Assembly: GCA_964621165.1 (NCBI GenBank)
Contig: CAZULC010000001.1
Span: 109,648-173,647, forward strand
Source of the DNA: an uncultured Ruminococcus sp.
GTDB taxonomy: Bacteria > Bacillota > Clostridia > Oscillospirales > CAG-272
Direction: 5' to 3'
DNA length: 64,000 nucleotides
Position 1 is the first letter of the stretch, and each line of letters opens with the position of its first letter. The notes under the pieces are model-generated. The model was not told the DNA's origin, searched no databases, and worked only from the letters and a program-made list of their open reading frames with translations. The position numbers were made by a program, and so were the translations under genes. Of the stretch, positions 524 through 32,185 are shown in pieces.

Positions 524-702
524 ACTTTGTTGTAATAAAGTTTTGATCAAACTTTTCCAAAAGTTTGTAGGGGTCAAGGGGACAAAGTCCCTTGCGACTT
601 CCGCAGAAGTCGTTCCCCAAGACTTCAAAAAAGTTCCTCTTTTTGCTTCTTTGGAATTTCGAAGAAATTCGCTCCTCGCTAAAGGAGAAAAAGAAGAACT
701 AA
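524..702 (+). repeat. Family-1 (F1) structured intergenic repeat, copy 1 (full, with an extra GAATTTC-GAA-GAAATTC hairpin insert)
   Basis: Contains CAAACTTTT-CC-AAAAGTTTG, GGGAC-AAA-GTCCC, GACTTC-CGCA-GAAGTC, CTCCTCGCTAAAGGAG. Aligns with 7 other copies. Confidence 0.9.
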
Positions 703-735
703 CAGTCTGAAATCATAATATTCTAATCAAAAAAC

Positions 736-2103
736 TCAAAACTCAATATCATCCAACGAAACCTTAACCGATTCAACTTTCACCGTATCTTCCTTCGCTT
801 CACCACTGACTTCACCCGCGGGCGCAATGCTTCTCTTTACCTTGCTCATTATCTCAGCAAAACCGTACTCACGGTTCGTGTACATTAGGTCAAGCAGCGT
901 CACATAGTCCCGTATTATCTCACGGGGCGTAATCATGACCTCCGCTCCTTCACGACTCATGCTCGAGAGTAAAAACGCCTTCATGTTCTCTTCCGTCACC
1001 ATTGGCTCCCATTTGTGGTACTCTCCGTGTAACGCCGTCAATCGCATCACTAACGCAAGCATCTCCGAATCCGATAACCGCCGTAAGCGAATCACGGGCT
1101 GCATTAACGAACGTAATTCCCCTGAACCAAAACTGTCCTGTAAGCGGCTCCGTAAGGCCTCGTAGCTGAATAACCCACGCCGCGTGTCCTCGAGAAACTG
1201 CGGAGTCCCTCCGAATATTATGATCAAACCCGGCGCACGCCCCTGCATCGTGTCGTTGAACATCGATAGTATCTTCTCGTAATTGTTCTCACGGGAAATT
1301 CTGTTCGGGATTTTGTAAAGGTTCACACATTCGTCAATGTAAACGCATAACCCCGAATACCCAGCTAAACGCACAAACGCCGTGAATAACTTTAAATAAT
1401 CATACCAGTTATCGTCGTTGATTATGCTCAGCGAACGGATTCCAATGGCGTCCCGGGCCTCTGTGCGCGTGTTGTACTCCCCGCGTATCCACTTTAAACA
1501 GGCTGAAGCTAAATCGTCATTTCCGTCACACCATGCATTGTAGTACGTCCGTAATATAGAGGAAAAATCAAATCCTCCCACACCGGCCTCAAGTTCCCGT
1601 AAACAGGACATAATCTTCCTGCCAAACTCAACCCGGTATGCCTCACTTGACTCGTCTAAGCCCGAGTTTATCAGCTCACCGCCGATTTTCGTGAACCACT
1701 TGCCAAGTATCACCGATAAAGCCCCGCCGTCAGGGGATGACTTCACCGCCACGTTCTTCATAAGCTCACGGTAGGTCGCAAGCCCGCTGCTGTTCGAACC
1801 CGATAACTTCCGCTCAGGTGAGAGATCACAGTCGGCTGTGACAAATCCAAGATCCAACGCATACCCACGGGAAAGCTGGATCAGAAAGGACTTTCCCGAA
1901 CCGTATCGGCCAATGATGAACTTCGTGGCACCTTCGCCGTCAGCAACCCGGTCCAAAGCCGCAACTAACGCACCGATTTCCTCAGTACGGCCGATGGCAA
2001 TGTAAGGCGCACCCACACGGGGAACAACTCCGCCGGAGAGAGAGGAAAGAAGAGTCCCCAGAATCCGACGCGGCACTTTCGCCGTATTTTTAGTTTCAAG
2101 CAT
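736..2103 (-). CDS. sngB: P-loop ATPase, DUF2791/BrxD-like (Shango SngB-like)
   Basis: 455 aa. Walker A GRYGSGKS, Walker B CVYIDEC, GAGGA RBS. Lies between the TerB gene and the helicase gene. Confidence 0.7.
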   Translation of the reverse strand: MLETKNTAKVPRRILGTLLSSLSGGVVPRVGAPYIAIGRTEEIGALVAALDRVADGEGATKFIIGRYGSGKSFLIQLSRGYALDLGFVTADCDLSPERKLSGSNSSGLATYRELMKNVAVKSSPDGGALSVILGKWFTKIGGELINSGLDESSEAYRVEFGRKIMSCLRELEAGVGGFDFSSILRTYYNAWCDGNDDLASACLKWIRGEYNTRTEARDAIGIRSLSIINDDNWYDYLKLFTAFVRLAGYSGLCVYIDECVNLYKIPNRISRENNYEKILSMFNDTMQGRAPGLIIIFGGTPQFLEDTRRGLFSYEALRSRLQDSFGSGELRSLMQPVIRLRRLSDSEMLALVMRLTALHGEYHKWEPMVTEENMKAFLLSSMSREGAEVMITPREIIRDYVTLLDLMYTNREYGFAEIMSKVKRSIAPAGEVSGEAKEDTVKVESVKVSLDDIEF

Positions 2104-2160
2104 AAATCAATCCTCAGCTTCACAAACTTCACGTATAAGAATCACAATAAATCCCAGCTT

Positions 2161-2234
2161 CACGTATTTGTAATAAGTTTAGGTCAAGGGGACAAAGTCC
2201 CATTATCGACTTCCGCAGAAGTCGAAACACCCCC
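2161..2234 (+). repeat. F1 repeat, copy 2 (5' half only)
   Basis: CACGTATTTGTAATAAGTTTAGGTCAAGGGGACAAAGTCCC..TCGACTTCCGCAGAAGTCGAAAC, then the alignment ends. Confidence 0.85.
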
Positions 2235-2253
2235 AGCATTCTCCCCATCTCAT

Positions 2254-4401
2254 TCACCCGCCGTTTTTCTCAACCCACTCAACCGCGTCATCCCTGTAGT
2301 CCTCGATTACTTCCCCGTCTTCGATAAGCACATCCCCTATTACCTCAAGAAATACAGTGTTCACCCGGTCCGTCAGCTCACCTTCGTATATCCCCGCCTC
2401 TCGCGCATACTGCCGGAATCTCCCATCTAAAGCCGCTTTAACAGCACCAAGAATCACCCAATCTACAACATTCCCGGCATCCCCACCATCTCCGCCCGAT
2501 CCAATTGCCACCGTATCCCCACCGACTTCATCAGCCGCCATAGACAAGTCCGCATCTTCCTCAGCCACCACCAGCCGCTCCGTGTTCACCCATGACTCAC
2601 GCTCAATCGCCTCGGCCGCAGCTACATCAAACCCCGCCGTCTCTGCCTCGTAGTTCGCCATGTAGCCCTCCGGCATGTACTTCTCGTCCAAACTCTTCTT
2701 CCGCTTTGCACCTGACTTCTCCAAAACCGGAGCAAAGTATCGGTCTATCACATCCGCGTCTCGTATGTCGACCTGCTTCGCCAATAACTTCGACTTTAAC
2801 CCGTATGCCTCGCGTACCTTGTTCTCCGAATACTTTATTGCTTTGGTCATAATGTCCCGGGTGCTCTCAAGCCGGATGCAGGACGATAACTCAAGCTCAA
2901 TCCGCTTCTTCGAACGAATCGACGCAACCGCTCCTACGTAGGAATCCCGCACCATCCTGTATGTCCGGCCAAACCCAAATATCCCGCGCCGCCCCTCATA
3001 CTGGGACTTAAGTACCGCCGCCACAGCCCCCGGAATCAACTCGTCGTATTCGGACTTGTACTGAGTGTAATACCTGCTCGTCTTGTAGTCGTAATCCGAC
3101 ATGGAGTAGGTGAATACGTCGGTCAGCGAACGGTATAGCCGAACCTCGTCACCTGAATATTCCCGGAATATGCCGTCAAGATAAAACTCCTTTATCTGCG
3201 AACGCGCAACTATCTCCGGTAAATACGGTATAAGCCCCGACGGTACACTTATCTCGTGTATCAGACAGTAGTCCGCAAGCCAGTCGCTTAAATTGCACAT
3301 GAATAACGGGTACTTGTCCCGAAAATCACGCTGATACTTCAATAATAACGCGGTCAGTACCTCAGCTCGCCGGTTGTTTTCACCTGCGTCACCGTCCGGC
3401 TCGTTTATCAGCTCAAATACATATAATTGAATGTACGAAAGGTCGCACTCCGGATACTTTCCGTGAGCTATGCACTCCTTCACCCAGTCGTAATACTCTA
3501 TTTGACTGCGGGTCATGTGACTGAACTGGGGGACATAGGAGAAAAACTTCACCTCGGGTATGTCCACGGTGTATGGGTAACGGGATACCCGCTTCCGGCT
3601 CACCTCAACGTCCTCCGCAAATCGGGAGTAAAAATCCGTCTCCGATGACCAGTCCTTTATCGTGACCCCCTTGATGAACGCACCGCCCGGCTCGTATTTC
3701 ACCTCACGCTGAACCGTACTCCCGTCAGTGTTCCCGCCCCGCCTTAATCGGGATTGATCGCCGCTGTCACCGACTCCGACACGCCTCTGCTTCCTTGCAC
3801 GGGAGTATGAACCGTAGGAGTACCCCGACACCGACCTCTGCCCGTCAACCGTCCTGATAACCCTGCCGCTGCTCCCGACGTCCCTGTTATCCTCGCCTCC
3901 TATCAAAACCGTAACCGGCTTCTTCTCCTTCTTCTCGCCGGAGGATGAATCGTCTTTTGCCTTGATTGCCTCGATCTCCTTCACAAGCTTGCTCACACCA
4001 TTGTAAAGAAGAGTCTTTCCCATTTCCGGATCGTACTCGGAATCACGCTTTGGTATGGCTTCACGGGAATATACGGCCTTCTCTTCAATTTCACTTTTCC
4101 CGCCGCCCAAATCCACCTTGACGCGCTCAACATCCGCCACATCAAGGGATCCGGGTGAAAACGACGGCTTCGAGTACGTCTTCTTTCTCGGCTCGCCCAT
4201 GTCCCAGAAGTCCCCGTCGTCAAAATCCCGCCATACCTCCCGGGACGTCTTTACTTTGCCGTCTTCTGAGGGAACACGCTTTTCTTCGACGGCTACGTTT
4301 TCTTCGACTTCTTCGCTTTTTTCGATTTCTTCGTTTATAATCTGCTCAGCTTCACCGGATTTATCTCCCGCCGGAAAGTTTTTTTCATCCGCCATGTTCA
4401 T
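2254..4401 (-). CDS. sngA: TerB-N / TerB-C domain protein (Shango SngA-like)
   Basis: The central region FFSYVPQFSHMTRSQIEYYDWV..YIQLYVFELINE is TerB-N-like. The C-terminal region LDGRFRQYAREAGIYEGELTDRVNTVFLEVIGDVLIEDGEVIEDY is TerB-C-like. Start moved from 4422 to the ATG at 4401, behind GGAGTGGGAGG. Confidence 0.7.
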   Translation of the reverse strand: MNMADEKNFPAGDKSGEAEQIINEEIEKSEEVEENVAVEEKRVPSEDGKVKTSREVWRDFDDGDFWDMGEPRKKTYSKPSFSPGSLDVADVERVKVDLGGGKSEIEEKAVYSREAIPKRDSEYDPEMGKTLLYNGVSKLVKEIEAIKAKDDSSSGEKKEKKPVTVLIGGEDNRDVGSSGRVIRTVDGQRSVSGYSYGSYSRARKQRRVGVGDSGDQSRLRRGGNTDGSTVQREVKYEPGGAFIKGVTIKDWSSETDFYSRFAEDVEVSRKRVSRYPYTVDIPEVKFFSYVPQFSHMTRSQIEYYDWVKECIAHGKYPECDLSYIQLYVFELINEPDGDAGENNRRAEVLTALLLKYQRDFRDKYPLFMCNLSDWLADYCLIHEISVPSGLIPYLPEIVARSQIKEFYLDGIFREYSGDEVRLYRSLTDVFTYSMSDYDYKTSRYYTQYKSEYDELIPGAVAAVLKSQYEGRRGIFGFGRTYRMVRDSYVGAVASIRSKKRIELELSSCIRLESTRDIMTKAIKYSENKVREAYGLKSKLLAKQVDIRDADVIDRYFAPVLEKSGAKRKKSLDEKYMPEGYMANYEAETAGFDVAAAEAIERESWVNTERLVVAEEDADLSMAADEVGGDTVAIGSGGDGGDAGNVVDWVILGAVKAALDGRFRQYAREAGIYEGELTDRVNTVFLEVIGDVLIEDGEVIEDYRDDAVEWVEKNGG

Positions 4402-4439
4402 GCCTCCCACTCCTTCAAACATTAGTTCGTTAATATCTT

Positions 4440-4634: not shown

Positions 4635-7181
4635 ATGAAAATATCATTCTCAACCCTCGGCTGTCCCGACTTCGGCTGGACGGATATATATTCACTGGCA
4701 AAGGACTTCGGCTTTCACGGAATCGAAATGCGCGGACTTGGCGGCAATATCTTCTCGGTCCACGCCTCCCCCTTCAAGCCGGAAAACCTGCCCAAAACAA
4801 AAGCACAGCTTCGTAAGCTCAAGCTTGAAATCTGCTGCCTCTCCTCCGGCTGCGCACTCAGATTCAAGGACAAGCACAGCGAGACCATGGAGGAGCTGAA
4901 GGAATACATCAACCTCGCACATGAGCTTGGCACACCATACATCCGCGTCCTTGGTGACCTGACGGCTGAGCCTACGACGGACTTCCCCGACGAGAACGTA
5001 ATCGAACCCATGAAAATCCTCGCTCCCATCGCGGAAGAGGCGGGAGTTACACTGCTAATCGAGACAAACGGCGTCTATTCCGACACCAAACGCCTCGCCG
5101 ACGTACTCGCGCAGATCGGATCCGATAACGTAGCCGCACTCTGGGACTTCAACCACCCCTACCGCTTCAATGGCGAGCTTCCCGAAACCACAATCAATAA
5201 TTTAGGTGCGTACATCAAGCACGTCCACATCAAGGACTCCGTTGTAATCGACGGCAAAGTCCACTACCGCCTTGTAGGTGAGGGCGACCTTCCGCCAATG
5301 GCTGACTACATGAAGGCTCTCCGCTCACTGAACTACGAGGGCTATATATCTCTCGAATGGCTAAAGCAGTACGCACCTGAGCTGTCCGACGCGGGTATAG
5401 TCTTCCCCCACTTCGCCCACTTCATGTCAAAATACCTCGGCGAAAATCACGGCGACGGCAGACTCCAGAAGAATAACCGGGGCGACGGTGAGTACATCTG
5501 GGAGAAGAATAAACTCATAGACCTGACCTTCCCGCAGGTTCTCGACAGAATGTGCGAGGAATTCCCCGACCAGTGGGCTTTCCGCTATACCACCCTCGAC
5601 TATAACCGCACCTACAGCGAATTCCGGGACGACGTGGACACCTTCGCACGCTCTCTCATCTCCCTCGGAGTAAAACAGGGGGACCACGTTGCAATCTGGG
5701 CGACAAACGTACCCCAGTGGTATATAACATTCTGGGCAAGCGTGAAAATCGGCGCGGTCCTCGTCACGGTCAATACCGCCTATAAAATCCACGAAGCTGA
5801 ATACCTCCTTCGCCAGTCCGACACCCACACCCTCGTAATGATCGACGGCTATAAGGACTCGGACTACGTCGCAATCATGAAACAGCTCATCCCCGAGCTT
5901 GAAACAAACGGAAACTCCGTTGACACCGTAAAGCCCATCCACAGCCGCTCCCTCCCGTTCCTGCGCAACATCATAACAGTGGACTCAAGACAGAACGGCT
6001 GCCTCACATGGGACGACGCCCTCTCGCTGGCCGATAAAACCCCCGTCGAAGCCGTGTACACCAGAGCCGCAATGATAAATAAACACGACGTGTGCAACAT
6101 GCAGTACACCAGCGGCACCACCGGATTTCCCAAGGGAGTCATGCTCACCCACTATAACGTGGTAAACAACGGTAAAGCAATCGGCGACTGCATGGATCTC
6201 TCCACCGCCGACAAAATGATGATTCAGGTGCCCATGTTCCACTGCTTCGGCATGGTTCTGGCAATGACCGCCTCCATGACCCACGGAACAACAATGTGTC
6301 CGATTCCGGCGTTCTCACCAAGAAAGGGTCTTGACTGCATAAGCAGAGAACAAATCACAGCCTTCCATGGAGTCCCCACAATGTTCATAGCAATGCTTGG
6401 ACACGAGGACTTCCCCAAAACCGACTTTTCCCATATGCGCACCGGAATCATGGCCGGCTCCCCCTGCCCAATCAAAGTAATGGAAGAGGTGGTGGAGAAA
6501 ATGCACATGAGCGAAATCTGCATCACCTACGGTCAGACCGAGGCTTCCCCCGCTACCACTATGTCAAAGACCACCGACTCCCTTGAAACCAGAGTGAATA
6601 CGGTGGGAAGCGCAATCTTCGGCGTGGAGTGTAAGATAGTGAACCCCGAAACCGGCGAGGACTGCCCCGATAACGTGGACGGCGAGTTCGTGGCACGGGG
6701 ATATAATATAATGAAGGGTTACTATAAGATGCCCGAAGCTACAGCCGCCGCAATCGACGAGGACGGTTGGCTCCATACAGGTGACCTCGCAAGAAGACTG
6801 CCCGACGGTAACTATAAAATCACCGGCAGAATCAAGGATATGATTATCCGAGGCGGCGAGAATATATACCCCAAGGAAATCGAGGACTTCATCTATACCT
6901 ACCCCAAGGTGCAGGACGTTCAGGTCATCGGCGTGCCGGATAAGAGCTATGGCGAGGAAATTATGGCGTGCGTTATAAAGAAGCCCGGGGAGGAGTGTAC
7001 AGAAGAAGAGATCAAGGATTACGTCAGGACCCATATGGCAAAGCATAAGGTGCCAAGGTATGTTGTGTTCGTGGAGTCATTCCCCATGAACGCCGCGGGT
7101 AAGATCCTTAAGTATAAGATGAGAGAAGAAGCACAAAAACTCCCCCAGTTCAAAGAAGCCGCTGGAATAGTCACGGCCTAA
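4635..7181 (+). CDS. Fusion protein: xylose-isomerase-like TIM barrel (sugar-phosphate isomerase/epimerase family) + AMP-forming acyl-CoA synthetase/ligase
   Basis: 848 aa. The N-terminal ~270 aa (MKISFSTLGCPDFGW..GIEMRG..IETNG..HVHIKD) look like a TIM barrel. The C-terminal ~550 aa carry YTSGTTGFPKGVMLTH, GWLHTGDL and GRIKDMIIRGGENIYPKEIE. Confidence 0.75.
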   Translation: MKISFSTLGCPDFGWTDIYSLAKDFGFHGIEMRGLGGNIFSVHASPFKPENLPKTKAQLRKLKLEICCLSSGCALRFKDKHSETMEELKEYINLAHELGTPYIRVLGDLTAEPTTDFPDENVIEPMKILAPIAEEAGVTLLIETNGVYSDTKRLADVLAQIGSDNVAALWDFNHPYRFNGELPETTINNLGAYIKHVHIKDSVVIDGKVHYRLVGEGDLPPMADYMKALRSLNYEGYISLEWLKQYAPELSDAGIVFPHFAHFMSKYLGENHGDGRLQKNNRGDGEYIWEKNKLIDLTFPQVLDRMCEEFPDQWAFRYTTLDYNRTYSEFRDDVDTFARSLISLGVKQGDHVAIWATNVPQWYITFWASVKIGAVLVTVNTAYKIHEAEYLLRQSDTHTLVMIDGYKDSDYVAIMKQLIPELETNGNSVDTVKPIHSRSLPFLRNIITVDSRQNGCLTWDDALSLADKTPVEAVYTRAAMINKHDVCNMQYTSGTTGFPKGVMLTHYNVVNNGKAIGDCMDLSTADKMMIQVPMFHCFGMVLAMTASMTHGTTMCPIPAFSPRKGLDCISREQITAFHGVPTMFIAMLGHEDFPKTDFSHMRTGIMAGSPCPIKVMEEVVEKMHMSEICITYGQTEASPATTMSKTTDSLETRVNTVGSAIFGVECKIVNPETGEDCPDNVDGEFVARGYNIMKGYYKMPEATAAAIDEDGWLHTGDLARRLPDGNYKITGRIKDMIIRGGENIYPKEIEDFIYTYPKVQDVQVIGVPDKSYGEEIMACVIKKPGEECTEEEIKDYVRTHMAKHKVPRYVVFVESFPMNAAGKILKYKMREEAQKLPQFKEAAGIVTA

Positions 7182-7185
7182 ACTG

Positions 7186-7327
7186 CACGTTGTTGTAAAA
7201 AGTTTAGGTCAAGCCTTTTCAAAGGCTTGTAGGATTCAAAGGGACAAAGTCCCTTGTCGACGACCGCAGTCGCCGAAACATCCCAAGACTTCTAAAGAGT
7301 TCCTCTTTTGGTTCTTTGCTCCTCGAT
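7186..7327 (+). repeat. F1 repeat, copy 3 (3' end truncated)
   Basis: CAAGCCTTT-TC-AAAGGCTTG, GGGAC-AAA-GTCCC, TCGACGAC-CGCA-GTCGCCGA, AAAGAGTTCCTCTTT, ending at GCTCCTCGATA. Confidence 0.9.
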
Positions 7328-7550
7328 ATCAGGTTCGACTACGTTGAAAGGCAAATCCACCTCCCCCATAGCCTACCTCGAGGGTATCTACGTCGCCGAA
7401 GAGTATAGAAACCACGGCTGGGCAAGGGAAATGGGCTGCACCGAATTCGCAAGCGACTGCGAACACGACAACGCCGCCAGCCTGAATTTCCACCTCGCCG
7501 TAGGATCCGAGGAAGTAAAACGTCTAATCTGCTTTAAAAAAGACCTGTAA
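7328..7550 (+). pseudogene. Remnant of an AAC(6')-like GNAT acetyltransferase (C-terminal ~70 codons only)
   Basis: ..IAYLEGIYVAEEYRNHGWAREMGCTEFASDCEHDNAASLNFHLAVGSEEVKRLICFKKDL*. The N-terminal half is absent, and the A-motif to GCTEFASD spacing is shorter than I expect for the family. It abuts the truncated F1 copy. Confidence 0.55.
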
Positions 7551-7672: not shown

Positions 7673-8797
7673 TCATTCCCGCTTTACCTGAAAAACCGGC
7701 ACCGCTGACTTATTTCCTATGTATATCGCCGACGCCGGCTTTATTCCCCCGCTTGTGTAAACATAAACGTTCGTCTGCGTAACCGCCAATTCGGAACCGT
7801 ATACCCAGTTTGACGAACGGCCATATACGGAATTCACAGGAACCGCCCTCACTCGGTACCTGACCCTGCTCCAGCCGTGCTCGGCCATGTCCGTAAACGA
7901 AACCGACTCGCCACTGTATATCAAACCGTATGATTCTCCATCAACCGACCGCTCAAGCTCGTATACCCTGCCTGACATTTCAAGATTGTCGATTGGCACG
8001 GACCAGCTTAACTTCACCGAAGCTCCGGCCGTCGGCTCGCTGTATGTAAAATCATAGGGCGAAAATAATGTGTAGGCTGGCTGCGCAGTGAACACGGGCG
8101 TGTTGACCTCGGCTATGCCTATGTAGTCCTCCAGTCCCGCCTCGGGAGTCGAGTATAACGCCGCAACTCCACGGTAACGGCATGTGTCATCCGTGTTGAA
8201 GGCTATGGAATACGACGCGGACCCCGACGAACCCATCCTTCCGCTCTCACGCACAGTCCGTACCTCGGTCCCGTCTATCACCGAACGGTTGAGAGTCTCG
8301 TATACCATAATCAGACTGCACCACATTCCCGCGTTTTCCGATACCGAAGCCGGAACCTGCGACTGCCAGTATATCGAAACGTCGTCTCGAAGCCGCACAC
8401 CATATAAACGAAAATCAAACTCCGGCGCCGGATCAGTGTAACTCCCCTTCCACTTTATAACGTACCCGTCGGCAAAATCATCAGCGAGATACTTCACCCG
8501 ACAGCCGATTGTCAGCTCCTTCACCCCGCCGTCATACGCAAAGTCAACCCCAACTTCCGAATCAAACTTGTCCACAATGACATACTTCTTCTCGCCGTTG
8601 TACGTAACCGGAACTTCAATCGAATAGTTGTAGTAGTACCCCTTGGGAACCATCGGCTCAAGACTCACGTATAACCTTTCACCGTCAGTCTTCAGCCGAA
8701 GCTGCACGTAGGTGTTCTTGTCAATGTCCTCACCGTAACACCCGCGTAAAATCATCTCTCCGCAGGAAATATATAAAACCTTCATCTTCTCCTCCAT
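7673..8797 (-). CDS. Phage tail-fibre/host-recognition-position protein with a C-terminal Fn3-like segment
   Basis: 374 aa and the last gene of the module. C-terminal VKLSWSVP..YELERSVDGESYGLIYSG..YRVRAV resembles an Fn3 domain. An alternative start at 8785 lies behind GGAGGAG. Confidence 0.4.
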   Translation of the reverse strand: MEEKMKVLYISCGEMILRGCYGEDIDKNTYVQLRLKTDGERLYVSLEPMVPKGYYYNYSIEVPVTYNGEKKYVIVDKFDSEVGVDFAYDGGVKELTIGCRVKYLADDFADGYVIKWKGSYTDPAPEFDFRLYGVRLRDDVSIYWQSQVPASVSENAGMWCSLIMVYETLNRSVIDGTEVRTVRESGRMGSSGSASYSIAFNTDDTCRYRGVAALYSTPEAGLEDYIGIAEVNTPVFTAQPAYTLFSPYDFTYSEPTAGASVKLSWSVPIDNLEMSGRVYELERSVDGESYGLIYSGESVSFTDMAEHGWSRVRYRVRAVPVNSVYGRSSNWVYGSELAVTQTNVYVYTSGGIKPASAIYIGNKSAVPVFQVKRE

Positions 8798-8895
8798 TTT
8801 CCGCCATAGTCATTGCCGCCGCCCCATCCTCAGCTCAAATTCCCGCTGGAATATAATCCCTCTCCAGCATTCCTTCCCCACCACGCACCACTGCA

Positions 8896-9597
8896 CTACT
8901 CCGCCAAAAGAATGAAAACTTCCCCTTCCTTAAGGGTAGTCGGCATAACTGTGCCATAGGAAATGTTTCTCACCGCAGAAGCACCGGTTTCCTCAGCCGC
9001 CGCCGTCAGCTTTCCCGTCATGATCCCGCCGCTCCTCTTCAGATAAGCAGAAGCTGCAGAACCGCCGAGCATGTTCGCATTCTGAGCCAGTGCAACGGAG
9101 GACAGAGCGTCAATCGTACTCGTCACAATTCCGCATTTGCCGCCGTCAGTGCGCGTGTCCGAAATCATGGCAGACGTAACCGAATCAGACCCGGTGGGTA
9201 CACTCACCTCAGCCAGTACCAGATCCTTTATGCTGTCGCTTGTCACCGGTGAGTCCGTCGTCGCACATAAAGTGAATTCCCCCGCCGGAACGTTCAGCCG
9301 GAGAATGACATTGTACTCCCCGCCCGGACTCAGGGTCAGAGTCAGATCCTCCTTCTGCCACGCCATGTATCCGCGTACCCACGCAACACCCGCCTGTGCC
9401 TTTATTTTCATCCCGCCGCCGGGAATAATTTTGAAACTGTCCTCACCAAAAATCCCGTCGGAGTAAAAGCATGAAATCAGCTTCGCGAAAAACGCGGAAT
9501 CCACAGCCTTGTTCCCACGCGGAAATCCGCCTACAGTCTCCTCAACTGTAGTGGAATCAAATAACCCTCCGTATACCGGAGTTGAAATTGTTGCCAT
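8896..9597 (-). CDS. Phage tail fibre / receptor-binding-like structural protein
   Basis: 233 aa, MATISTPVYGGLFDSTTVEETVGGFPRGNKAVDSAFFAKL.., positioned after the tail-tip gene. GAAAGAAAGGA RBS. Confidence 0.45.
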   Translation of the reverse strand: MATISTPVYGGLFDSTTVEETVGGFPRGNKAVDSAFFAKLISCFYSDGIFGEDSFKIIPGGGMKIKAQAGVAWVRGYMAWQKEDLTLTLSPGGEYNVILRLNVPAGEFTLCATTDSPVTSDSIKDLVLAEVSVPTGSDSVTSAMISDTRTDGGKCGIVTSTIDALSSVALAQNANMLGGSAASAYLKRSGGIMTGKLTAAAEETGASAVRNISYGTVMPTTLKEGEVFILLAE

Positions 9598-9633
9598 ATG
9601 TTAATCATCCTTTCTTTCACCATAACCGCCATC

Positions 9634-10725
9634 TCACCCGATCGTCTCACGGATAACGTCGGCAAGCTTCACCGTCTCGCCAAAGCAGGGGAGAATCCTG
9701 ACTCCGCCGTACTCGCATACCACGTCAACCCCGGTGAGCCTCATGCCGGCCTGAAGCCCCGTCTCAACGTCACATACGTCGCACACGTCCCCGAGGAAAT
9801 AGTCCCGCCCGTACTCCGGAACAAGGGAACTGCCGCATTCCGCCGAAACATACACCGACGCCGGATATTTCGCGAGAAGCTCTTCCCCTCTCTGACGAAG
9901 CGCTGCCGCGTATTCATCCGTATCCCCATAATCCGCCGGACGCACATCCGAGGCCTTCTTGTAAATCTCAGCCCTCCTTGAATAGCCCGCGTCCCCTGAA
10001 CCTTCCATCGGTTCAACCTCAACCACAGTCCCGTCCGAGCCTTCGATGTACGCGTGATTCTTCATCTTCGCCGAGTTCTTCTCGTAACTCAGGGAAAATA
10101 TGTTCCCAAAGGAAGAGGAAAACACCGCCCTCTCAGCACCGGACTCAGCCGAAGCAGCAGCCCCGTCGGATGAACGGTCGGCGCCCCGCACGATCCTCAT
10201 CACTGGCCGGTTCGTTTTGTAGTCAAGCTCCACCACATAGGATGCACCAAAGGGCTTGAGTACGTTGTAGAGCCAGTCCGATAACTTGTCGTAGTTCCAC
10301 GTGAGACTGACCCCGCCGGACAGTGGAATCCTCGCGCTCCCTTCACGGTCAACCTCAACCCCAAGTGAGCGCAGGTTCTCCTCAGCCTTGTCAAGCACAG
10401 CGGAAGACAGTTCCCCCTGAGCCGAAATCCCGCCCTTGCCAAGAACCAGCCTGTCGCCGAGAACCCCCTCAAGCAGCTCGCCTCCTGCCTCAAGATCCCC
10501 GCTGATGCCGCACCGCATGTATAAAATCCGCCCGCACAGGCATTTCCCCCGCTCGTAACCGCTTCTCACATAAACCGCACGGGTCAGCTCAGCCCACCTG
10601 TACCGGGGCAGATGAAGAACAAAGCTCCCCGCCTCGTAGTACCTCTCGGAAAACACAGCCGAGGTAAAGTCCTCAACCGGCCCCGTAATCAAATCAAACT
10701 TCCCGTCAAGAAAATATAACTCCAT
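9634..10725 (-). CDS. Phage minor tail protein (ReqiPepy6 Gp37-like, tail-tip position)
   Basis: 363 aa, MELYFLDGKFDLITGPVEDFTSAVFSERYYEAGSFVLHLP.., immediately downstream of the Dit-position gene. Confidence 0.55.
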   Translation of the reverse strand: MELYFLDGKFDLITGPVEDFTSAVFSERYYEAGSFVLHLPRYRWAELTRAVYVRSGYERGKCLCGRILYMRCGISGDLEAGGELLEGVLGDRLVLGKGGISAQGELSSAVLDKAEENLRSLGVEVDREGSARIPLSGGVSLTWNYDKLSDWLYNVLKPFGASYVVELDYKTNRPVMRIVRGADRSSDGAAASAESGAERAVFSSSFGNIFSLSYEKNSAKMKNHAYIEGSDGTVVEVEPMEGSGDAGYSRRAEIYKKASDVRPADYGDTDEYAAALRQRGEELLAKYPASVYVSAECGSSLVPEYGRDYFLGDVCDVCDVETGLQAGMRLTGVDVVCEYGGVRILPCFGETVKLADVIRETIG

Positions 10726-10760
10726 AAATCAAACTTCCCCAAAAATAAAGTCCGGACGGG

Positions 10761-11624
10761 TCAGATTCCGTAGTAAATCGGCGAAAACTCAAGCTGAGCG
10801 TCAATGTACTCCCCGCCACAGTCGCATAAAACGGCAACCTCACTCACACCAGCCGGAAGGGAAAAGAACTCGCTTCCCCGGTCAAAGGAAAAATACCTCT
10901 CCCCGTCAACCAAAACCGACTTGCGCCGCTCACGTGTGTCAATCACCAGCTCATGGCCGTCTCCAAGGGTCAGTGGACACCGCACATACTTCTCTCCCAG
11001 ACGTATTCCCGGGTTCACGACCTCCCCGCCTGACGCCCTGATTCTCGCCACAATGCCGCACTCACCGTCGCCGGAGTTTGAAACCCTCGCCCGGTCCGTA
11101 GTCCTGTACATTCCGCCAACCGTACCCGCATCCGCCATGAGATTCAGGGGAAACGTCAGAATCGGAGCCGCGTCACGGAACTGCACCTTGATTCCCTCGG
11201 CTTCCTCAAAGTAAACGGAGGGAGAAATAAAGCTCACCTCAGCCTCGATGACTCCGCCAAGGGACGACTCACGCCTGAATTCAGCTTCTCCAGCCGGAAG
11301 AGCCGAAATCCTCCTTGCCTTGCCGTACATCATAACGTCAATCATAACCTCGCAGGATGGGTTCAGCATGGAGACCAGCTTCCGCCGAATCAGATCCGCG
11401 GCCTCTCCCATTCCGTCAAGCTCAAAGACAAGGGTCATTTCCCGCTCGGCAAAACGCCGCCTGACAGCATAACCGCCGACCCCTGAGGCATAGGAGCTGA
11501 CAAGAACGTCAAATCCGGTGCAGTCAAACCCCGCCATGCCGTCCTCAACCAAATGCCCCTCCCCGTCCGGAGAAATAATAAACTCATCCCCGCCGGACGA
11601 CAGAACTATTTTGTAATCCACCAT
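10761..11624 (-). CDS. Siphovirus distal tail protein (Dit-position)
   Basis: Directly after the TMP. Start moved to the ATG at 11624 (MVDYKIV..) behind GGGAGGA. Confidence 0.55.
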   Translation of the reverse strand: MVDYKIVLSSGGDEFIISPDGEGHLVEDGMAGFDCTGFDVLVSSYASGVGGYAVRRRFAEREMTLVFELDGMGEAADLIRRKLVSMLNPSCEVMIDVMMYGKARRISALPAGEAEFRRESSLGGVIEAEVSFISPSVYFEEAEGIKVQFRDAAPILTFPLNLMADAGTVGGMYRTTDRARVSNSGDGECGIVARIRASGGEVVNPGIRLGEKYVRCPLTLGDGHELVIDTRERRKSVLVDGERYFSFDRGSEFFSLPAGVSEVAVLCDCGGEYIDAQLEFSPIYYGI

Positions 11625-20961: not shown

Positions 20962-21170
20962 CAGAATTCCCCCGTTCCCGCCCGCCCAGATAACCCGATG
21001 GAAAACGATATAAGTTTGGAGTGTGAAGAGTGGAGCTTATATTGTTGAGTCGCAAACCGTATCCCAATGAAGTACCGCTTCATGCTTGACCTCACCTCAA
21101 TCAAATTCGCCGGAGTATCGCTTGAACTGTTCCCCATTGGTTCACTTAATCCAGACCCACGCCGAACTGC

Positions 21171-21485: not shown

Positions 21486-21753
21486 CTGACCACTTCCTTT
21501 CACCTTGCCTAAATTGTACCATATCTGCCCCCTCCCTTTCATCCCCGCCAATTCCCATCTCACATTCATATTTTAAATCCAGTAAATCCTCCCATTTTCT
21601 CAGCCATTCTTACCCATTTCCCCCTTGATTCAAAAATCTCCTCGCCATACGTAAAATAAGCCTTAATCTCCAGTCCATATTTTGTTAACATTTCTACGCC
21701 AATAAAAAAAGCAACCTCATAATAAGATTGCCTCGTTTGTATTGATTTTTACC

Positions 21754-22569: not shown

Positions 22570-22850
22570 CCCCACTAAGTAACTCCATAACGCAATCGAG
22601 ATCCGGCGTAGGCAGGCAAGGGTCGGAAGCTGTGCACCGGAGATAGCAAGCTATCTCCAACAAGGCGGTCCCTGACTGCCGTATTAAATTCCTCCTGATC
22701 CCTTGGTATTCAAAATTCAATCCGTACTTCTCCCTACTCAGCTGCAGAATAGGAGAAAGGAAGCACGCCCTATTCAGCTTCACACCAAAAGACCCAGTTT
22801 AAAAGTTCTTGCTCAGCTTATTTCAAGAAGCGCGTTCTCTTTAACTCACC
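22570..22850 (+). repeat. F2 modular repeat, copy A (modules M2-M5, no M1)
   Basis: GGCAGGCAAGGGTCGGAAGCTGTGCACCGGAGATAGCAAGCTATCTCCAACAAGGCGGTCCCTGACTGCCGTATTAAATTCCTCCTGATCCCTTGGTATTC...TTTAAAAGTTCTTGCTCAGCTTATTTCAAGAAGCGCG. Confidence 0.9.
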
Positions 22851-23747
22851 CCTTCGGTATCTCTCAACTTCTTCGCGCACTTCTCCTCTCTCCTTGAGAA
22901 TGTTGTAAACGCAAACCCCGCCTATAACTATGAACGCACCAATGATCGCCATCACGCCTATGCTTTCGTGAATTATAACCGCAGCTAAAATCGGATTTAA
23001 TACCGGCTCAATCATGGAAATCAAAGACGCAGTAAGCGGCGCTACCGAATTCAAGCCGTCCGCTATGCAGATGTAGGCTAAACCAAATTGAATAAAACCT
23101 ATCAGTAACACACCAACTATCACTTTTGCCGAAAAATCAACCTCGCCTGCCATAAACGGTAGCCCGATAACCGCGCCAAATACGCAGCCTATCAACACCG
23201 ACGATAACGAATCCGAACCCGGGAACTTCTTCATCATGAATACAAACGAATACGCTACCCCAGATATTATCGCTATAATGTTCCCAGCTATTCCGCCTCC
23301 CGAAAGACTGTCTATGAAAAATAATACTACCCCAAATAAAATAATAAATACAGCTCCCCCGTCAAGCTTCGTCGGCTTCTCCTTGAATATAAGCCACATG
23401 AATAATATGATAAATATCGGCGCCGTGTATTGTAATACTATCGCGTTCGCAGCTGTCGTCAACCGGTTCGCTAATATGTATAGTAACCCCTGTAACGTCA
23501 TCGCTAACCCGCAGAATACCGTGCTTTTGTCTATCACTATCCTGTGCCGCCGTATCTTCATGTATGTGAATATCTCCACAGCCGCAAGTAACGAACGCGC
23601 TCCGCATAACGACATCACTCCCCACGGCACCGACTTCACAAGAACCCCGCCTAACGAAAAACATACCGCCGATATTACAAAAAAACCAACCCCAATCCCG
23701 TGGCCTTTTGCTCCTTTTTCCTTTTCCTTTTCCGTATCCATATTCAT
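22818..23747 (-). CDS. EamA/DMT-family transporter
   Basis: 309 aa, about 10 hydrophobic segments in two similar halves. The last ~10 codons and the stop lie inside F2 copy A. Confidence 0.7.
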   Translation of the reverse strand: MNMDTEKEKEKGAKGHGIGVGFFVISAVCFSLGGVLVKSVPWGVMSLCGARSLLAAVEIFTYMKIRRHRIVIDKSTVFCGLAMTLQGLLYILANRLTTAANAIVLQYTAPIFIILFMWLIFKEKPTKLDGGAVFIILFGVVLFFIDSLSGGGIAGNIIAIISGVAYSFVFMMKKFPGSDSLSSVLIGCVFGAVIGLPFMAGEVDFSAKVIVGVLLIGFIQFGLAYICIADGLNSVAPLTASLISMIEPVLNPILAAVIIHESIGVMAIIGAFIVIGGVCVYNILKERGEVREEVERYRRGELKRTRFLK

Positions 23748-26976: not shown

Positions 26977-27185
26977 GAGTTCGTACATATATCCAGTGTA
27001 TCATATCAAAAGCCCCCGCTGTAGTTCCCGGAACGTATGCCCGTATGTTTAAAATCAGCAGGCAGCCCTCGTCAAACCGTACAAATGAACCGCATTTTAT
27101 GTCAAGTTCCGCGGTGATTTTGTGTAGTACGACCAGCCGGAACCGCAGGCAAAGCCATCAAAATCTTATCAAGAAAGGTAAAGCC

Positions 27186-27977
27186 ATGAAGAAACTCTTA
27201 TCCCTCATCCTCGCTTCCCTGATCCTCTCCATGTCCGCCGCAATGGTGTACGCAGACGACGCAGAAGAAGCCGCAGCCGAAGCAGAAGCCGTAACAACTG
27301 AAGAAGCCGCAGCCGAAGCAGAAATCATGCTCATCTCCGAAGAAACCGAAGAAGAAGCACCGGCAGAAGAAGCTGAAGAAACAGCAGAACCCGAAGAGCT
27401 GAAAATCCTCTCAGAAGGGGACGAAGGCTACCTCGCCGCTAAAATAGAAGGTCAGGTCACCGTTTCAATCGTAACAGTCGGCAATGACCAGAATATCGAC
27501 GCACGCCGCCTCCTCGACCATAACGAAAACACCGGTATCTCCTATACCAGCTCCCCTGACTCAAACCCGATTCTTAACCTCGCATTCGAACTCGACGAAC
27601 CCACAGTCGTAACGTCATTCGCATTCTCCTGCTCAGTTGATACAGCAGGCGCGGTTGCAGCTTTCCTCTACGCCACAAATGACCCCGACACGACAGAGTG
27701 GACATATATCTCGACAGAGACGACCGAAGCCGGAGACGGATTCTATACATGTAACTCCGTGGAGAAGTTCGTGAGAAAGTTTAAGTATTATAGGATCATG
27801 CTCGTGTTCACTCCAATCAACGAGGAGACAAATGAACCCGATATCACCGCTCCCGCAGAATTCTACCTCAATGAAGTGGAACTGTTCAAGGAAGCTCCCA
27901 TAGAAAAACCCGAAATAAAGAATAATATCCCCAGCTTCCCAATCTTCAATAGTACATTGACTAAAACAATAGGTTAA
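27186..27977 (+). CDS. Secreted protein with an acidic Ala/Glu-rich linker and one discoidin-like domain (paralog 2)
   Basis: Start at MKKLLSLILASLILSMSAAMVYADD behind GAAAGG. Carries LDHNENTGI..YATNDPDTTEW..EKFVRKFKYYRI..LNEVELF. Confidence 0.6.
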   Translation: MKKLLSLILASLILSMSAAMVYADDAEEAAAEAEAVTTEEAAAEAEIMLISEETEEEAPAEEAEETAEPEELKILSEGDEGYLAAKIEGQVTVSIVTVGNDQNIDARRLLDHNENTGISYTSSPDSNPILNLAFELDEPTVVTSFAFSCSVDTAGAVAAFLYATNDPDTTEWTYISTETTEAGDGFYTCNSVEKFVRKFKYYRIMLVFTPINEETNEPDITAPAEFYLNEVELFKEAPIEKPEIKNNIPSFPIFNSTLTKTIG

Positions 27978-28046
27978 GTGGGCGGGGAAGCCAAAACTCA
28001 AACAATCCCCACAACCATAAACGTAACCGATTCCCCACCCCAAAAC

Positions 28047-28155
28047 TTCACGTTGTTGCAAAAAGTTTAGGTCCGGTTTTTTCAAAGGCTTAAGGAGCTC
28101 CTCTTTTGGTTCTTTGCTCCTCGATAAAGGAGAAAAAAACAACTAATCCAGCACT
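28047..28155 (+). repeat. F1 repeat, copy 6 (internal deletion of the two central hairpins)
   Basis: CACGTTGTTGCAAAAAGTTTAGGTCCGG..CAAAGGCTTAAGGAGCTCCTCTTTTGGTTCTTTGCTCCTCGATAAAGGAGAAAAAAACAAC. Confidence 0.85.
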
Positions 28156-28361
28156 CTCATAATTAAAAATAGATTCACTAAAACATAAAAGAGGAACGAA
28201 CACCCCGCACTATCAAAATTAACCCAGACTCACAATAATCTACCCCCTCATAATTCCCTCCCAATAAAAAAGAAAAAGCAGCCCGCTCAAATCCAAGCTA
28301 AGCCACTCTTTCTTTAAAAGGAGGGAATGTTTTTTTCTAATAAACCTCAGCTGAGTCAAAA

Positions 28362-30011: not shown

Positions 30012-30239
30012 GATTTTTTCCTTTCATAAATTGTTTTCGTATACAGGTATAGTATATCATACTCGCCGCCTGTAATTGTTACCGTTTTATTAATTTTTCG
30101 GCGAAAGTGGGATTAATTTGAGAAAAACCCAACTTAACTCACCCACATTAACTTAGACGAAAAATAAATCCAAAAGTTCCATGATTTGCAAAAAATTTAA
30201 AGATTTTCAGGTAAAAATATGTAAAATCCAATAAACTTA

Positions 30240-30248
30240 TGATATAAT
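30240..30248 (+). promoter_or_regulatory. Extended -10 promoter element (TGaTATAAT) immediately upstream of F1 copy 7 / pyk
   Basis: TGATATAAT at 30240-30248, with a weak -35 TGTAAA at 30220-30225. Confidence 0.35.
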
Positions 30249-30251
30249 ATA

Positions 30252-30437
30252 AGTAGAAGATAACTCCACCCTTAAACAAAACGAAGTCAGCCCAAAAGTT
30301 TGTATGGGTCAAGGGGATAAAGTCCCTTGTCGACTTCCGCAGAAGTCGAAACAATCCAAGACTTCCAAAGAGTTCCTCTTTTGGTTCTATGCTCCTCGAT
30401 AAAGGAGAAAAGAACAACGAAATTCCCGCACTCCCCC
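30252..30437 (+). repeat. F1 repeat, copy 7 (full), in the pyk upstream region
   Basis: GTAGAAGATAACTCCACCCTTAAACAAAACGAAGTCAGCCCAAAAGTTTGTATGGG...GGAGAAAAGAACAACGAAATTCCCGCACTCCCCCC. Confidence 0.9.
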
Positions 30438-30539
30438 CATTTCACCAAAATTTTCTTTAACCAAATTTTCCCACTCCCATTTTCCAAAATTTCCCCATCC
30501 ATCCCCCAAAATAAAATAAAAACGAAAGGACATAATACC

Positions 30540-31991
30540 ATGCTGAAAACTAAAATCGTATGTACACTCGGACCGTCCTCGAATTCCGAGGATATGATCG
30601 AAAAAATGATCACCGCCGGAATGAACGTGGCTCGCCTTAACTTCTCCCACGGTACCCATGAGGAACATAAAAAAGTCATAGATAGAATCAAAAAAGTCCG
30701 CGATAAACTTCACTCACCCTGCGCCATAATGCTCGATACTAAAGGCCCAGAAATCCGCCTCGGTAAATTCAAGGATGACTCCGCTGAACTCGAAACCGGT
30801 GCTGACTTCATAATAATGTGCGGCGAAACTGACTTCAATTCCTTCATCGGCGATAAGTCCAAAGCCGCTGTGTCCTATAATAACCTCTGGAAACAGGTCG
30901 CTACAGGGACTAAAATTCTCTTCAATGACGGCGCTATCGAACTCTCCGTTAATATGGCTGATGAGGGCGAAATCCACTGTACCGTCATCTCCGGCGGCAC
31001 TATCAAAAGCGGTAAGGGCGTCAACGTCCCCGGCGTCCACCTCGATATGCCCCACCTCTCAGATAAGGATAAGTCCGACCTCATCTTCGGTATAGAAAAC
31101 GACGTTGACTTCATCGCGGCTTCCTTCATGCGCACCGGCGACGATATCATCGGTATGCGTAAATTCGTCGACTATAACGGCGGACATAATATCAAAATCA
31201 TCTCAAAAATCGAAAACCTCGAGGGTATCGAAAACTTCGACGAAATTCTGAAATACTCCGACGGTATCATGGTGGCAAGAGGAGATATGGGCGTGGAAGT
31301 CGACTTCGAACGCCTGCCCGGTCTTCAAAAAATGTTCATAAAAAAATGCTATCAGGCCGGTAAAATGGTCATCACCGCTACACAAATGCTCGAGTCCATG
31401 ATCCAAAATCCTACCCCAACCAGAGCCGAAATCTCTGACGTGGCTAACGCAGTGTTTGACGGCACCAGCGCTGTCATGCTCTCAGGCGAAACCGCTATAG
31501 GTAAATACCCCCTCAGAGCAGTCAAAGCTATGGCAAAAATAGCCGAACAGGCCGAGTTCGACGCATTCGCCGCAGGGGTCTATGAGTCCATGTCCTACGA
31601 TATCGACTATACCGACGTAACTAACGCCCTCTGCGACGCCGCATGTACCACAGCCGCCGATATGAACGCTAAGGCAATCATCACCCTCACCACGTCCGGT
31701 AGAAGCGCAAGACGTATGTCGAAATTCCGTCCTGCTCAGCCTATCGTAGCCGCAACTCCCGAGAGAAAAACATATCACCAGCTCGCTCTCTCGTGGGGTG
31801 TGTACCCCGTTCTCGCACTTAGACAGGACACGTTGGAAAAACTGTTCAGACACGCAGTCGACTGTGCAAAGGAGATAAACCTCGTAAGCGCAGGGGATTA
31901 TGTCGTGATCTCGGCAGGCGTGCCCGTCCTCACCCCCGGAAATACAAATATACTTAAGGTGCAAAAGGTCGAAGACCTCCGCTATGTTTAA
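30540..31991 (+). CDS. pyk: Pyruvate kinase
   Basis: MLKTKIVCTLGPSS..MNVARLNFSHG..MVARGDMGVE... Start at the ATG at 30540 behind GAAAGGA; the longer ORF-track start reads through the repeat. Confidence 0.9.
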   Translation: MLKTKIVCTLGPSSNSEDMIEKMITAGMNVARLNFSHGTHEEHKKVIDRIKKVRDKLHSPCAIMLDTKGPEIRLGKFKDDSAELETGADFIIMCGETDFNSFIGDKSKAAVSYNNLWKQVATGTKILFNDGAIELSVNMADEGEIHCTVISGGTIKSGKGVNVPGVHLDMPHLSDKDKSDLIFGIENDVDFIAASFMRTGDDIIGMRKFVDYNGGHNIKIISKIENLEGIENFDEILKYSDGIMVARGDMGVEVDFERLPGLQKMFIKKCYQAGKMVITATQMLESMIQNPTPTRAEISDVANAVFDGTSAVMLSGETAIGKYPLRAVKAMAKIAEQAEFDAFAAGVYESMSYDIDYTDVTNALCDAACTTAADMNAKAIITLTTSGRSARRMSKFRPAQPIVAATPERKTYHQLALSWGVYPVLALRQDTLEKLFRHAVDCAKEINLVSAGDYVVISAGVPVLTPGNTNILKVQKVEDLRYV

Positions 31992-31996
31992 TCCCG

Positions 31997-32185
31997 CAGA
32001 AGAATCGCTCCACCCTCATCACAAAACGAAGTCAGCCCAAAAGTTGTAGGGTTCAAAGAGACAACGTCCCTTGTCGAATTCCGCAGAATTCGAAACACCC
32101 CGATACTTCCAAGAAGTTCCTCTTTTGGTTCTTTGCTCCTCGATAAATGAGAAAAGAACAGCGAACAATCCGCACTCCCTCCCCT
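31997..32185 (+). repeat. F1 repeat, copy 8 (full), 6 nt after the pyk stop
   Basis: ..TCGAATTC-CGCA-GAATTCGA.. variant of the central hairpin. Shares the 3' tail CGCACTCCCTCCCC. Confidence 0.9.

Follow-up and report, generated by a model that had tools for sequence, protein, structure and literature searches.

A 64-kb stretch of chromosomal DNA from an uncultured Oscillospiraceae/Eubacteriales bacterium (contig CAZULC010000001.1; hereafter, the window) carries a family of eight intergenic multi-hairpin repeats, named here F1 (copies c1–c8; hairpins A–E). On balance, we think it somewhat probable that F1 elements, 120–230 nt in size, are small, non-coding, non-autonomous, modular interspersed repeats that are moved in trans and settle just downstream of genes. 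A conserved core, a chain of five hairpins of roughly 150 nt, would carry lineage-specific heads and tails, and the elements would colonise short spacers near gene ends, usually 0–130 nt 3′ of the stop codon of a co-oriented gene; this sense placement downstream would bring them into the 3′ untranslated region (UTR) of the gene's transcript. Stems would be kept by compensatory changes, while whole hairpins would be gained, lost, and exchanged between copies. Movement would depend on an enzyme encoded outside the window, in sister genomes probably a TA-targeting DDE transposase acting by cut-and-paste. The window copies themselves would be old derivatives that have diverged and lack inverted ends, and would have inserted once the lineage had parted from those relatives in which the sites are empty; two of the copies (c4 and c5) are inside a conserved phage-like gene cluster.

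The first-pass annotation of this DNA had proposed mobile-DNA behaviour, and comparison with other genomes bears this out: orthologous spacers are empty in relatives, and copies about 99% identical to one another occupy many loci of the metagenome-assembled genome (MAG) RUG12348, so F1 moves or has moved. The related contig L064 has the same phage-like cluster between the same host genes, and its pyruvate kinase is 78% identical to that of the window. Its scaffold–coat spacer measures 51 nt (50–115 nt in related clusters) against 311 nt in the window, where c4 lies, and its terminase–portal spacer 38 nt against 239 nt in the window, where c5 lies; short spacers also characterise the phage clusters of related IMG/VR contigs. 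After the stop of the AMP-binding gene, where c3 sits in the window, both L064 and L066 have a terminator and not F1. Contig L066, whose AMP-binding protein is 90% identical to that of the window, has no F1 at all, and its BrxD-like and TerB_N genes overlap at the site of c2. L064 in turn has its own F1 copy at a site that is empty in the window. Other sites are shared: an orthologue of c5 is present in L061 (portal 80% identical), and in two 94% relatives, L035 and L036, the pyruvate kinase gene is flanked by F1 on both sides, with orthologues of c8 following its stop. The copies upstream of this gene in L035 and L036 are closer to c3 (83–86%) than to c7 (74%), and in the 81% relatives L037 and L038 pyruvate kinase occurs without F1. 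In L062, another relative, the terminase–portal spacer (8768–9316) is 549 nt long and filled with unrelated GC-rich hairpins, so different repeat families have invaded the same spacer in different genomes.

The homologues with the clearest ends come from rumen MAGs. When one genome per species was scanned, the F1 3′ module turned up only in MAGs from the rumen, under the labels uncultured Ruminococcus, Oscillospiraceae, or Clostridia, with many matches at contig ends. Homologues with the same module order were recovered from RUG12348, RUG12770, RUG10688, SIG615, RGIG6935, and RGIG7980, the F1-bearing rumen MAGs having about 60% G+C and little skew, near zero; further homologues are found in relatives of the window genome (L035, L036, L061, L064, L068, and L069). 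Terminal inverted repeats of 27 nt, imperfect except for 9 perfect terminal bp, bound the homologues in RUG12348, RUG12770, RUG10688, and SIG615. The RUG12348 element is 225 bp long, with at least 17 matching stretches in that genome; it is bounded by TATAGCAATACTCAGAATTAGCTGCAC ... GTGCGAGTATTTGAGCGGATTGCTATA and has sharp ends, TATAGCAAT...ATTGCTATA, with TA on both sides. The RUG12770 element is bounded by ATACTGATTTCACTCTAAACCATGTCA and an imperfect complement of the same sequence. TA is present at every MAG element end examined (8 left and at least 13 right); the L011 copy interrupts, at TA, a palindrome formed by its flanks, and both ends survive in L022 and L027, which are derivatives with internal deletions. 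L064, L068, and L069 have just the core and lack inverted ends. Judged by sequence, the RUG12348 and RUG12770 elements appear to have the anatomy of a TA-duplicating miniature inverted-repeat transposable element (MITE), and it is from the inverted ends and TA flanks in these sister genomes that we infer cut-and-paste mobilisation by a DDE enzyme.

Several points weigh against this account. The window copies lack inverted ends and have neither TA nor any other duplication, so the TA/inverted-repeat mechanism is read across from the homologues. An all-against-all comparison of the loci yielded no empty site at nucleotide resolution that separates a TA duplication from the element end, and without such a site the TA at both ends is not separable from part of the inverted repeat. 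The inverted ends of the homologues could also reflect capture of the core by another element. No transposase was found among the 30 window open reading frames (ORFs) scanned or in the F1-bearing sequence examined, and a partner insertion sequence for the MAG elements, expected to carry the end sequences TATAGCAATACTCAG... or ATACTGATTTCAC..., was likewise not found, these ends occurring in the loci examined only on small elements. MITE mobility gives no reason for conserved internal hairpins, and a DNA palindrome can gain matched changes with no selection when one arm templates correction of the other. Finally, a cut-and-paste MITE leaves unexplained the placement on one strand of all eight F1 copies in the window, and of all nine copies of a second repeat family, F2, described below.

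The eight copies are secure. The first-pass annotation had placed them all on the same strand within the left 32 kb. That strand is the + strand, and an unfiltered search of both strands of the 64 kb with a covariance model of F1 (R1) recovers exactly c1–c8 (E values 1e-10 to 1e-45), none in 32.2–64 kb, and minus-strand matches that are only palindromic echoes of the F1 hairpins. An nhmmer profile likewise yields exactly c1–c8 in the window, and the copies are evident in alignment A1 and in the direct-repeat families D3, D6, D8, D9, and D12. Shuffled sequence predicts 0.00 matches to a 24-base pattern of the 3′ module, and the window has 6; for a 17-mer of hairpin C, with 0.12 expected, there are 11 (five exact on the + strand, one with two mismatches, and five palindromic echoes). 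Counts this far above expectation exclude chance. An assembly artefact, considered earlier as a possible source of the copies, is ruled out by the independent Logan contig L034, which is 100% identical over 30394–32100 and breaks inside c7 and c8, and by the orthologous copies in L035, L036, and L061.

The anatomy described earlier stands, with amendments. Several left ends had been set too far to the right, since the window copies begin with a head, (A)CGTAGAAGAATCnCCCCACCCTTAAAC, and end 3′ in a C-rich tail, CGCACTCCCTCCCC(T)TTCA. The four hairpins listed were correct, and a fifth had been missed: hairpin A (CAAnCTTTTC-C-AAAAGnTTG), which is present in c1, c3, and c4, deleted from c2, c5, c7, and c8, and half-deleted in c6. 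Variants do arise by loss of whole modules, c2 keeping the 5′ half only and c6 lacking the two central hairpins. No ORF had been noted in the copies, and they show no coding constraint: their indels, of 19–23 nt, do not come in multiples of three. A frame does stay open on the opposite strand of some copies, but these indels and the covariation of the stems rule out a coding gene. An inverted-repeat search of all window copies found no terminal inverted repeats, and no consistent target duplication was seen, again in agreement with the earlier description. An apparent inverted head to the right of c3 is coding sequence of a GNAT-like gene remnant, and a repeat near c5, TCCATAAA, was rejected as a target duplication as it is not seen at the other copies. 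The window copies are 74–86% identical to one another, pairs with the partial copy c2 being lower, and are therefore old.

Copy c1 (493–720) has the head, hairpins A–E, and an extra GGAATTTCG..GAAATTC hairpin nested in E (R1 match 537–699, 103 bits; head GTAGACGAATCGCCCC from 495), and lies between two minus-strand genes, an ORF starting at 459 and a BrxC/D-family gene with its stop at 736. Copy c2 (2132–2249; R1 2155–2249, 36.5 bits) retains the head and, of the hairpins, just B and C (A, D, and E are missing); it fills the spacer from the start of the BrxC/D-family gene (2103) to the stop of the TerB_N gene (2254). Directly after the TAA stop (7179–7181) of the AP_endonuc_2/AMP-binding gene comes c3 (7182–7328; R1 7199–7357, 120.7 bits), with hairpins A–D and the 5′ arm of E. 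Its 3′ end is truncated against the remnant of a GNAT-acetyltransferase-like gene (about 7330–7550, +), the translation of which, judged by eye, resembles a fragment of a GNAT-type acetyltransferase (...IYVAEEYRNHGWAREM...); the fragment abuts the truncated copy, which suggests that one deletion removed both the end of c3 and the start of the GNAT-like gene. The most complete copy, c4 (17253–17474; R1 17297–17444, 143 bits), has hairpins A at 17308–17327, B at 17335–17355, C at 17356–17375, D at 17392–17406, and E at 17409–17441, with inverted-repeat arms at 17335–17343/17347–17355 and 17404–17417/17433–17446. It lies in the phage-like cluster between the stop of the scaffold gene (17533) and the start of the coat gene (17221), antisense to both.

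The remaining four copies are also on the + strand. Copy c5 (19421–19615; R1 19450–19588, 126.8 bits) has a long head, hairpins B–E with A deleted, and the C-rich tail CGCACTCCCTCCCCCTTCA; its neighbours, to both of which it is antisense, are the terminase gene (stop at 19654) and the portal gene (start at about 19402–19414). In c6 (28022–28162; R1 28062–28143, 58.8 bits) the head and half of A are followed by D and E, with B and C missing; it begins about 45 nt 3′ of the stop of a + strand gene (27045–27977), which is convergent with an SLH-domain gene. Copy c7 (30252–30444; R1 30277–30418, 122.6 bits) lies between an extended −10-like sequence, TGATATAAT (about 30240–30248), and the ATG of pyruvate kinase (30540). 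This element was read by eye and was not reported by the promoter scan; if it is used as a promoter, c7 is probably in sense inside the pyruvate kinase 5′ UTR. Copy c8 (31995–32190; R1 32022–32162, 118.5 bits) starts 3 nt after the pyruvate kinase stop (31989–31991), and 3′ of it an inverted repeat (32203–32212/32224–32233) with a T-rich tail (about 32203–32240) is terminator-like, although the terminator scan did not report it. The pyruvate kinase transcript probably has one F1 copy in its 5′ UTR and another in its 3′ UTR (30236–30540 and 31989–32240). Overall, c1, c2, c4, and c5 occupy spacers between minus-strand genes and are antisense to them, and c3, c6, and c8 follow + strand genes.

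In a plain MAFFT alignment of 17 copies from several genomes (A2), 96% of cells pair under the five-hairpin structure, compared with 47–62% for slid controls; both partners have changed in 13 pairs, and covariation scores 0.30 against at most 0.10. A model-fitted alignment of 39 copies (A4), which is biased towards the structure, gives 96.7% paired and double changes at 34 of 42 pairs. Covariation is strong in hairpins A, B, and C, the stem of C occurring as CTTC/GAAG, CGAC/GTCG, ATTC/GAAT, GAGG/CCTC, and GCAC/GTGC; hairpin D changes only from A-U to G-U, and hairpin E is mostly conserved, with swaps at its base. The single-stranded linkers between hairpins are also conserved (e.g., AGTTCCTCTTTTGG). 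On the reported strand 72 G.U pairs stand against 18 A.C mismatches, which point to this strand as the better-folding one.

The hairpins also occur in other contexts. A homologue in a human-gut bacterium has modules A–C followed by different hairpins and a terminator-like sequence, the D and E modules sit behind other hairpins in L037, and the 3′ module of F2, TTTAAAGTTCTTGCACAGCTTCTTTCAAGAAGCG, resembles hairpin A; together these contexts suggest that the hairpins are exchangeable modules. Among human-gut strains that are 97–98% identical genome-wide, the 5′ modules of the single F1-like locus are wholly different (L053 3429–3650 versus L054–L060), and their comparison points to rapid module replacement at this locus.

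The odd feature of F1 in the window is its orientation. The first-pass annotation had reported a single orientation whatever the direction of the flanking genes, and this holds for all eight window copies. The C-rich strand holds all copies examined in the window lineage, namely eight from the window itself, three from L035, two from L036, and one from L061, several of them orthologous. The + strand is the lagging-strand sequence throughout the window; GC skew ranges from −0.1 to −0.35 in every 2-kb bin, and in intergenic sequence it is −0.29, with runs of three or more C five times as frequent as G-runs. On the sense strand, skew at third codon positions is −0.46 in + genes and +0.12 in minus genes, and the seven G-quadruplex-type motifs of the window are all on the minus (leading) strand, five within phage-like-cluster spacers. 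The tail motif GGGGAGGG (leading strand) was considered as a KOPS/SRS-like polar motif and set aside, as base skew alone makes any G-rich octamer polar here.

Two further repeat families of the window bear on this pattern. F2, a modular hairpin repeat of about 250–340 nt without an Rfam match, has 9 of 9 copies on the + strand (13842, 22586–22854, 35640–35975, 38604–38946, 45521–45750, 48276–48611, 56282–56393, 57830–58100, and 59870–60119). F3 (GGGAAGCCCC..CTCGGCAT..CAGCTGAG) occurs in both orientations, on the + strand at 24614, 37396, 37481, 56192, 57664, and 57749, and on the minus strand at 51317, 51407, and 55267, the copies at 51317 and 51407 lying within a 3 × 90-nt tandem (51234–51503); its orientation seemingly tracks the upstream gene for the most part. 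Since F3 lies both ways in the same window, neither the assembly nor a trait common to all repeats accounts for the strand lock.

Outside the window lineage, orientation follows genes. Just 3′ of the stop codon of a co-oriented gene lie 16 of 19 copies; a co-oriented gene stands 5′ of F1 in 12 of 15 MAG loci, often ending 0–4 nt before it, and also in L064, in L068, and at both L069 copies. In GCA_965324205.1, contigs L064 and L068 are parts of one 90-kb contig with the same skew sign, yet their F1 copies are opposed, each coming 3′ of the stop of a gene that points the same way as the copy. Such opposition within one skew domain and the gene-linked orientation together indicate that F1 orientation is not tied to replication across the family; orientation relative to GC skew is uninformative in the MAG loci, where skew is near zero. 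The single orientation in the extremely GC-skewed window lineage is real. We regard it as rather unlikely that the locking of F1 (8 of 8) and F2 (9 of 9) to the lagging-strand sequence marks a replication-coupled process acting on structured repeats. The lock could come from single-strand mobilisation by an unnamed enzyme, or from selection for polar elements acting only on head-on (lagging-strand) transcripts or on fork passage, and the lock and the extreme skew might share a cause.

The first-pass annotation had taken uniform orientation and subterminal hairpins as the signature of single-strand (HUH/Y1) mobilisation. On this explanation, which we hold to be unlikely, F1 would be a palindrome-associated IS200/IS605 derivative, or a REP/REPIN-like substrate of a RAYT, moved as single-stranded DNA at the replication fork; excision and insertion at the fork would, at the same low probability, fix F1 orientation relative to replication. 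It would accommodate the strand lock of F1 and F2 in a uniformly and very strongly skewed region, window copies that are hairpin-rich and have neither inverted ends nor target duplications, and the replication bias known for the orientation of IS200/IS605 insertions (PMC5027513). A REP hairpin has GTAG on its 5′ side, and RAYTs act on hairpin repeats (PMC3333891); window copies have GTAG at the head and before hairpin B, and the inverted ends of MAG copies are readable as a REPIN-like long stem. The hairpins, however, are not subterminal: they fill the whole element, whose ends in this lineage are C-rich and without structure. In homologues the GTAG that precedes hairpin B is variously GTGG, GCGG, or GCAG, and the left end has no conserved tetra- or pentanucleotide, its flanks being only A-rich (TAAA, AAAA, ATTA, ATCC, AGCA). 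In the window, the better-folding strand is on the leading-strand template and not on the single-stranded lagging-strand template. The 27-nt inverted ends and TA of the RUG12348 and RUG12770 homologues, the opposed copies of GCA_965324205.1, and the gene-following orientation of 16 of 19 copies elsewhere also stand against it. The absence of a transposase gene from the window had been noted correctly, none being present among its 30 Pfam-scanned ORFs, and a Y1 or RAYT gene sought elsewhere was not found in 515 kb from F1-bearing genomes, a rough search (tblastn with an approximate query, and motif regexes) that makes this a weak negative.

A second alternative, quite unlikely in our estimation, is that F1 is primarily a functional RNA, a 3′- or 5′-UTR module that protects, processes, or terminates transcripts, or else a multi-copy small RNA, with spread being secondary; in the window lineage it would, at the same estimation, act only on lagging-strand (head-on) transcripts. 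The strong covariation of hairpins A–C, the conserved linkers, the G.U bias for one strand, and the sense placement of 16 of 19 copies just after a stop outside the window lineage agree with such a role. So do c8, between the pyruvate kinase stop and a terminator-like repeat, and c7, probably in the 5′ UTR of the same gene, both positions being kept in three genomes. The human-gut homologue is bracketed by two intrinsic-terminator-like sequences, read by eye, and the C-rich head and tail resemble C-rich Firmicute small RNA motifs, at a chance-level score of about 19–20 bits against Rfam gathering thresholds of 79–80. Four of the eight window copies, however, lie antisense inside minus-strand operons, which this alternative leaves unexplained; promoter and terminator scans around six F1 copies found no consistent site in or beside the copies; no Rfam family matches; and deletions of whole modules are tolerated. 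Bursts of about 99%-identical copies, inverted ends, TA flanks, and presence or absence between relatives are traits of mobile DNA. Under the mobile-repeat reading that we prefer, an RNA-level role in sense 3′ UTRs would be compatible with the G.U bias and the placement.

Very unlikely is the proposal that F1 (and F2) of the window lineage no longer transpose and instead spread and homogenise between C-rich spacers by template switching or gene conversion; with spacers C-rich on the same strand, homology-guided copying would, as improbably, place one orientation only. The skewed intergenic composition fits, as do window-lineage heads and tails made of C-runs like those of the surrounding spacers (CCCCACCC, CTCCCTCCCC), a similar C-rich stretch after the AMP-binding stop at the empty L066 site, fuzzy ends without duplication, and the freedom from any orientation lock in weak-skew relatives. 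Variants also appear swapped at orthologous positions, the copies upstream of pyruvate kinase in L035 and L036 being nearer c3 than c7, and modules are replaced at the gut locus at 97–98% genome identity. The microhomologies are only 8–12 nt, however, conversion tracts were not directly seen, the arrival of the first copies is left unexplained, and F3 lies both ways in the same spacers. An integron attC array is dismissed, as there is no integrase among the scanned ORFs, no RYYYAAC...GTTRRRY core site was met on reading heads and tails, and the genes between copies are housekeeping or phage-like and 1.6–10 kb apart, the wrong spacing.

Searches of reference collections returned no known family. 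The first-pass annotation recognised no named RNA family, in line with zero Rfam matches in the window at gathering thresholds; at E values up to 10, matches were at chance level only (c4/c5, c7/c8, and one MAG copy). A BLAST search in distant mode with c4 matched nothing in plasmid and phage collections, and of two F1 patterns searched in IMG/VR one gave zero matches and the other a single isolated match (L065) that R1 did not confirm; by these sequence comparisons F1 does not appear to be phage-borne. A full-text search of the literature on MITEs and intergenic repeats in Ruminococcaceae and Clostridia found no description of F1. With no match in Rfam, in the plasmid and phage collections, or in the literature, F1 appears to be a previously undescribed family, widespread in uncultured rumen and gut Oscillospiraceae.

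Its closest parallels are nonetheless familiar, and by analogy F1 would be the same kind of element as MITEs, pneumococcal BOX, and REP/BIME repeats. Correia elements, RUP, and other IS630-type derivatives are classical TA-duplicating bacterial MITEs. F1 is small, non-coding, multi-copy, and insertion-polymorphic, as MITEs are, and the RUG12348 and RUG12770 elements add 27-nt imperfect inverted ends, TA flanks, lengths of about 186–225 bp, many near-identical copies, and deletion derivatives that keep both ends. The window copies differ in having neither inverted ends nor TA, and no partner insertion sequence was found in the loci examined; moreover, the internal hairpins of F1 are conserved across genomes with differing ends, and MITEs need no such hairpins.

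Pneumococcal BOX (boxA-boxB-boxC), RUP, and SPRITE are small interspersed repeats, BOX being modular, highly base-paired, and transcribed into UTRs (PMC3049150). Like F1, these repeats are short, non-coding, intergenic, and highly paired, gain or lose whole boxes, and occur in Firmicutes (PMC3049150); they too are often co-transcribed in UTRs, with stem-loops that may affect transcript stability, and their mobilising enzyme is uncertain or acts in trans. F1 has no sequence similarity to BOX: its five different hairpins come in a fixed order, whereas BOX has A and C ends around repeated B boxes, and the window copies share a single strand and have no inverted ends; the hosts are uncultured Oscillospiraceae. 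With REP/BIME and REPIN repeats F1 shares intergenic hairpins, clustered modules, a position downstream of genes, and, in the window copies, GTAG-like motifs 5′ of a stem. REPs are single 30–40-nt palindromes paired inversely, unlike the 150-nt ordered chain of F1 (PMC3333891); GTAG is not conserved across the F1 family, there are no BIME-type head-to-head pairs, and no RAYT was found in the sequence searched. The likeness to IS200/IS605 elements lies in window copies without inverted ends or duplication, reliance on hairpins, and, in the window lineage, an apparent replication-related orientation bias. F1 differs in that its hairpins are not subterminal and that it has neither a conserved target tetranucleotide nor TnpA/TnpB nearby, nor any match among Rfam RNA families; in a related genome, moreover, one skew domain contains both orientations.

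The genes around the copies are those of a chromosome, among them pyruvate kinase, a GyrB/ParE-family topoisomerase subunit, CTP synthase, RuvX, DapF, and SLH-domain proteins. The morphogenesis cluster that houses c4 and c5, with terminase, portal, scaffold, and P22-type coat genes, spans about 13 kb on the minus strand (about 7673–21569; counterpart L064 2362–14719) and also encodes a possible small terminase, connectors, and a Sipho_Gp37-like protein. It lies between DUF1934 and AP_endonuc_2/AMP-binding host genes both in the window and in L064, and no integrase and no long tape-measure gene were seen in it; it may be a domesticated element, like a gene transfer agent (GTA) or PBSX. At 736–4422 (minus), a gene for a BrxC/BrxD-family ATPase (Pfam E 2e-145) adjoins that for a 722-aa TerB_N-domain protein. 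The two look like a defence-island pair, which is kept in L066, where both genes overlap.

Small interspersed repeats shape bacterial genomes by inserting into operons and UTRs, where they can change transcript stability. Repeats of the F1 type also break assemblies, as in several of the metagenome assemblies here. The R1 model would let annotators mask F1, and would be usable for testing an RNA-level role in 3′ UTRs. The one feature of F1 that could go beyond the ordinary is the strand lock; the contrast between one strongly skewed lineage, which has it, and relatives with gene-linked orientation lends itself to the study of what sets repeat polarity.

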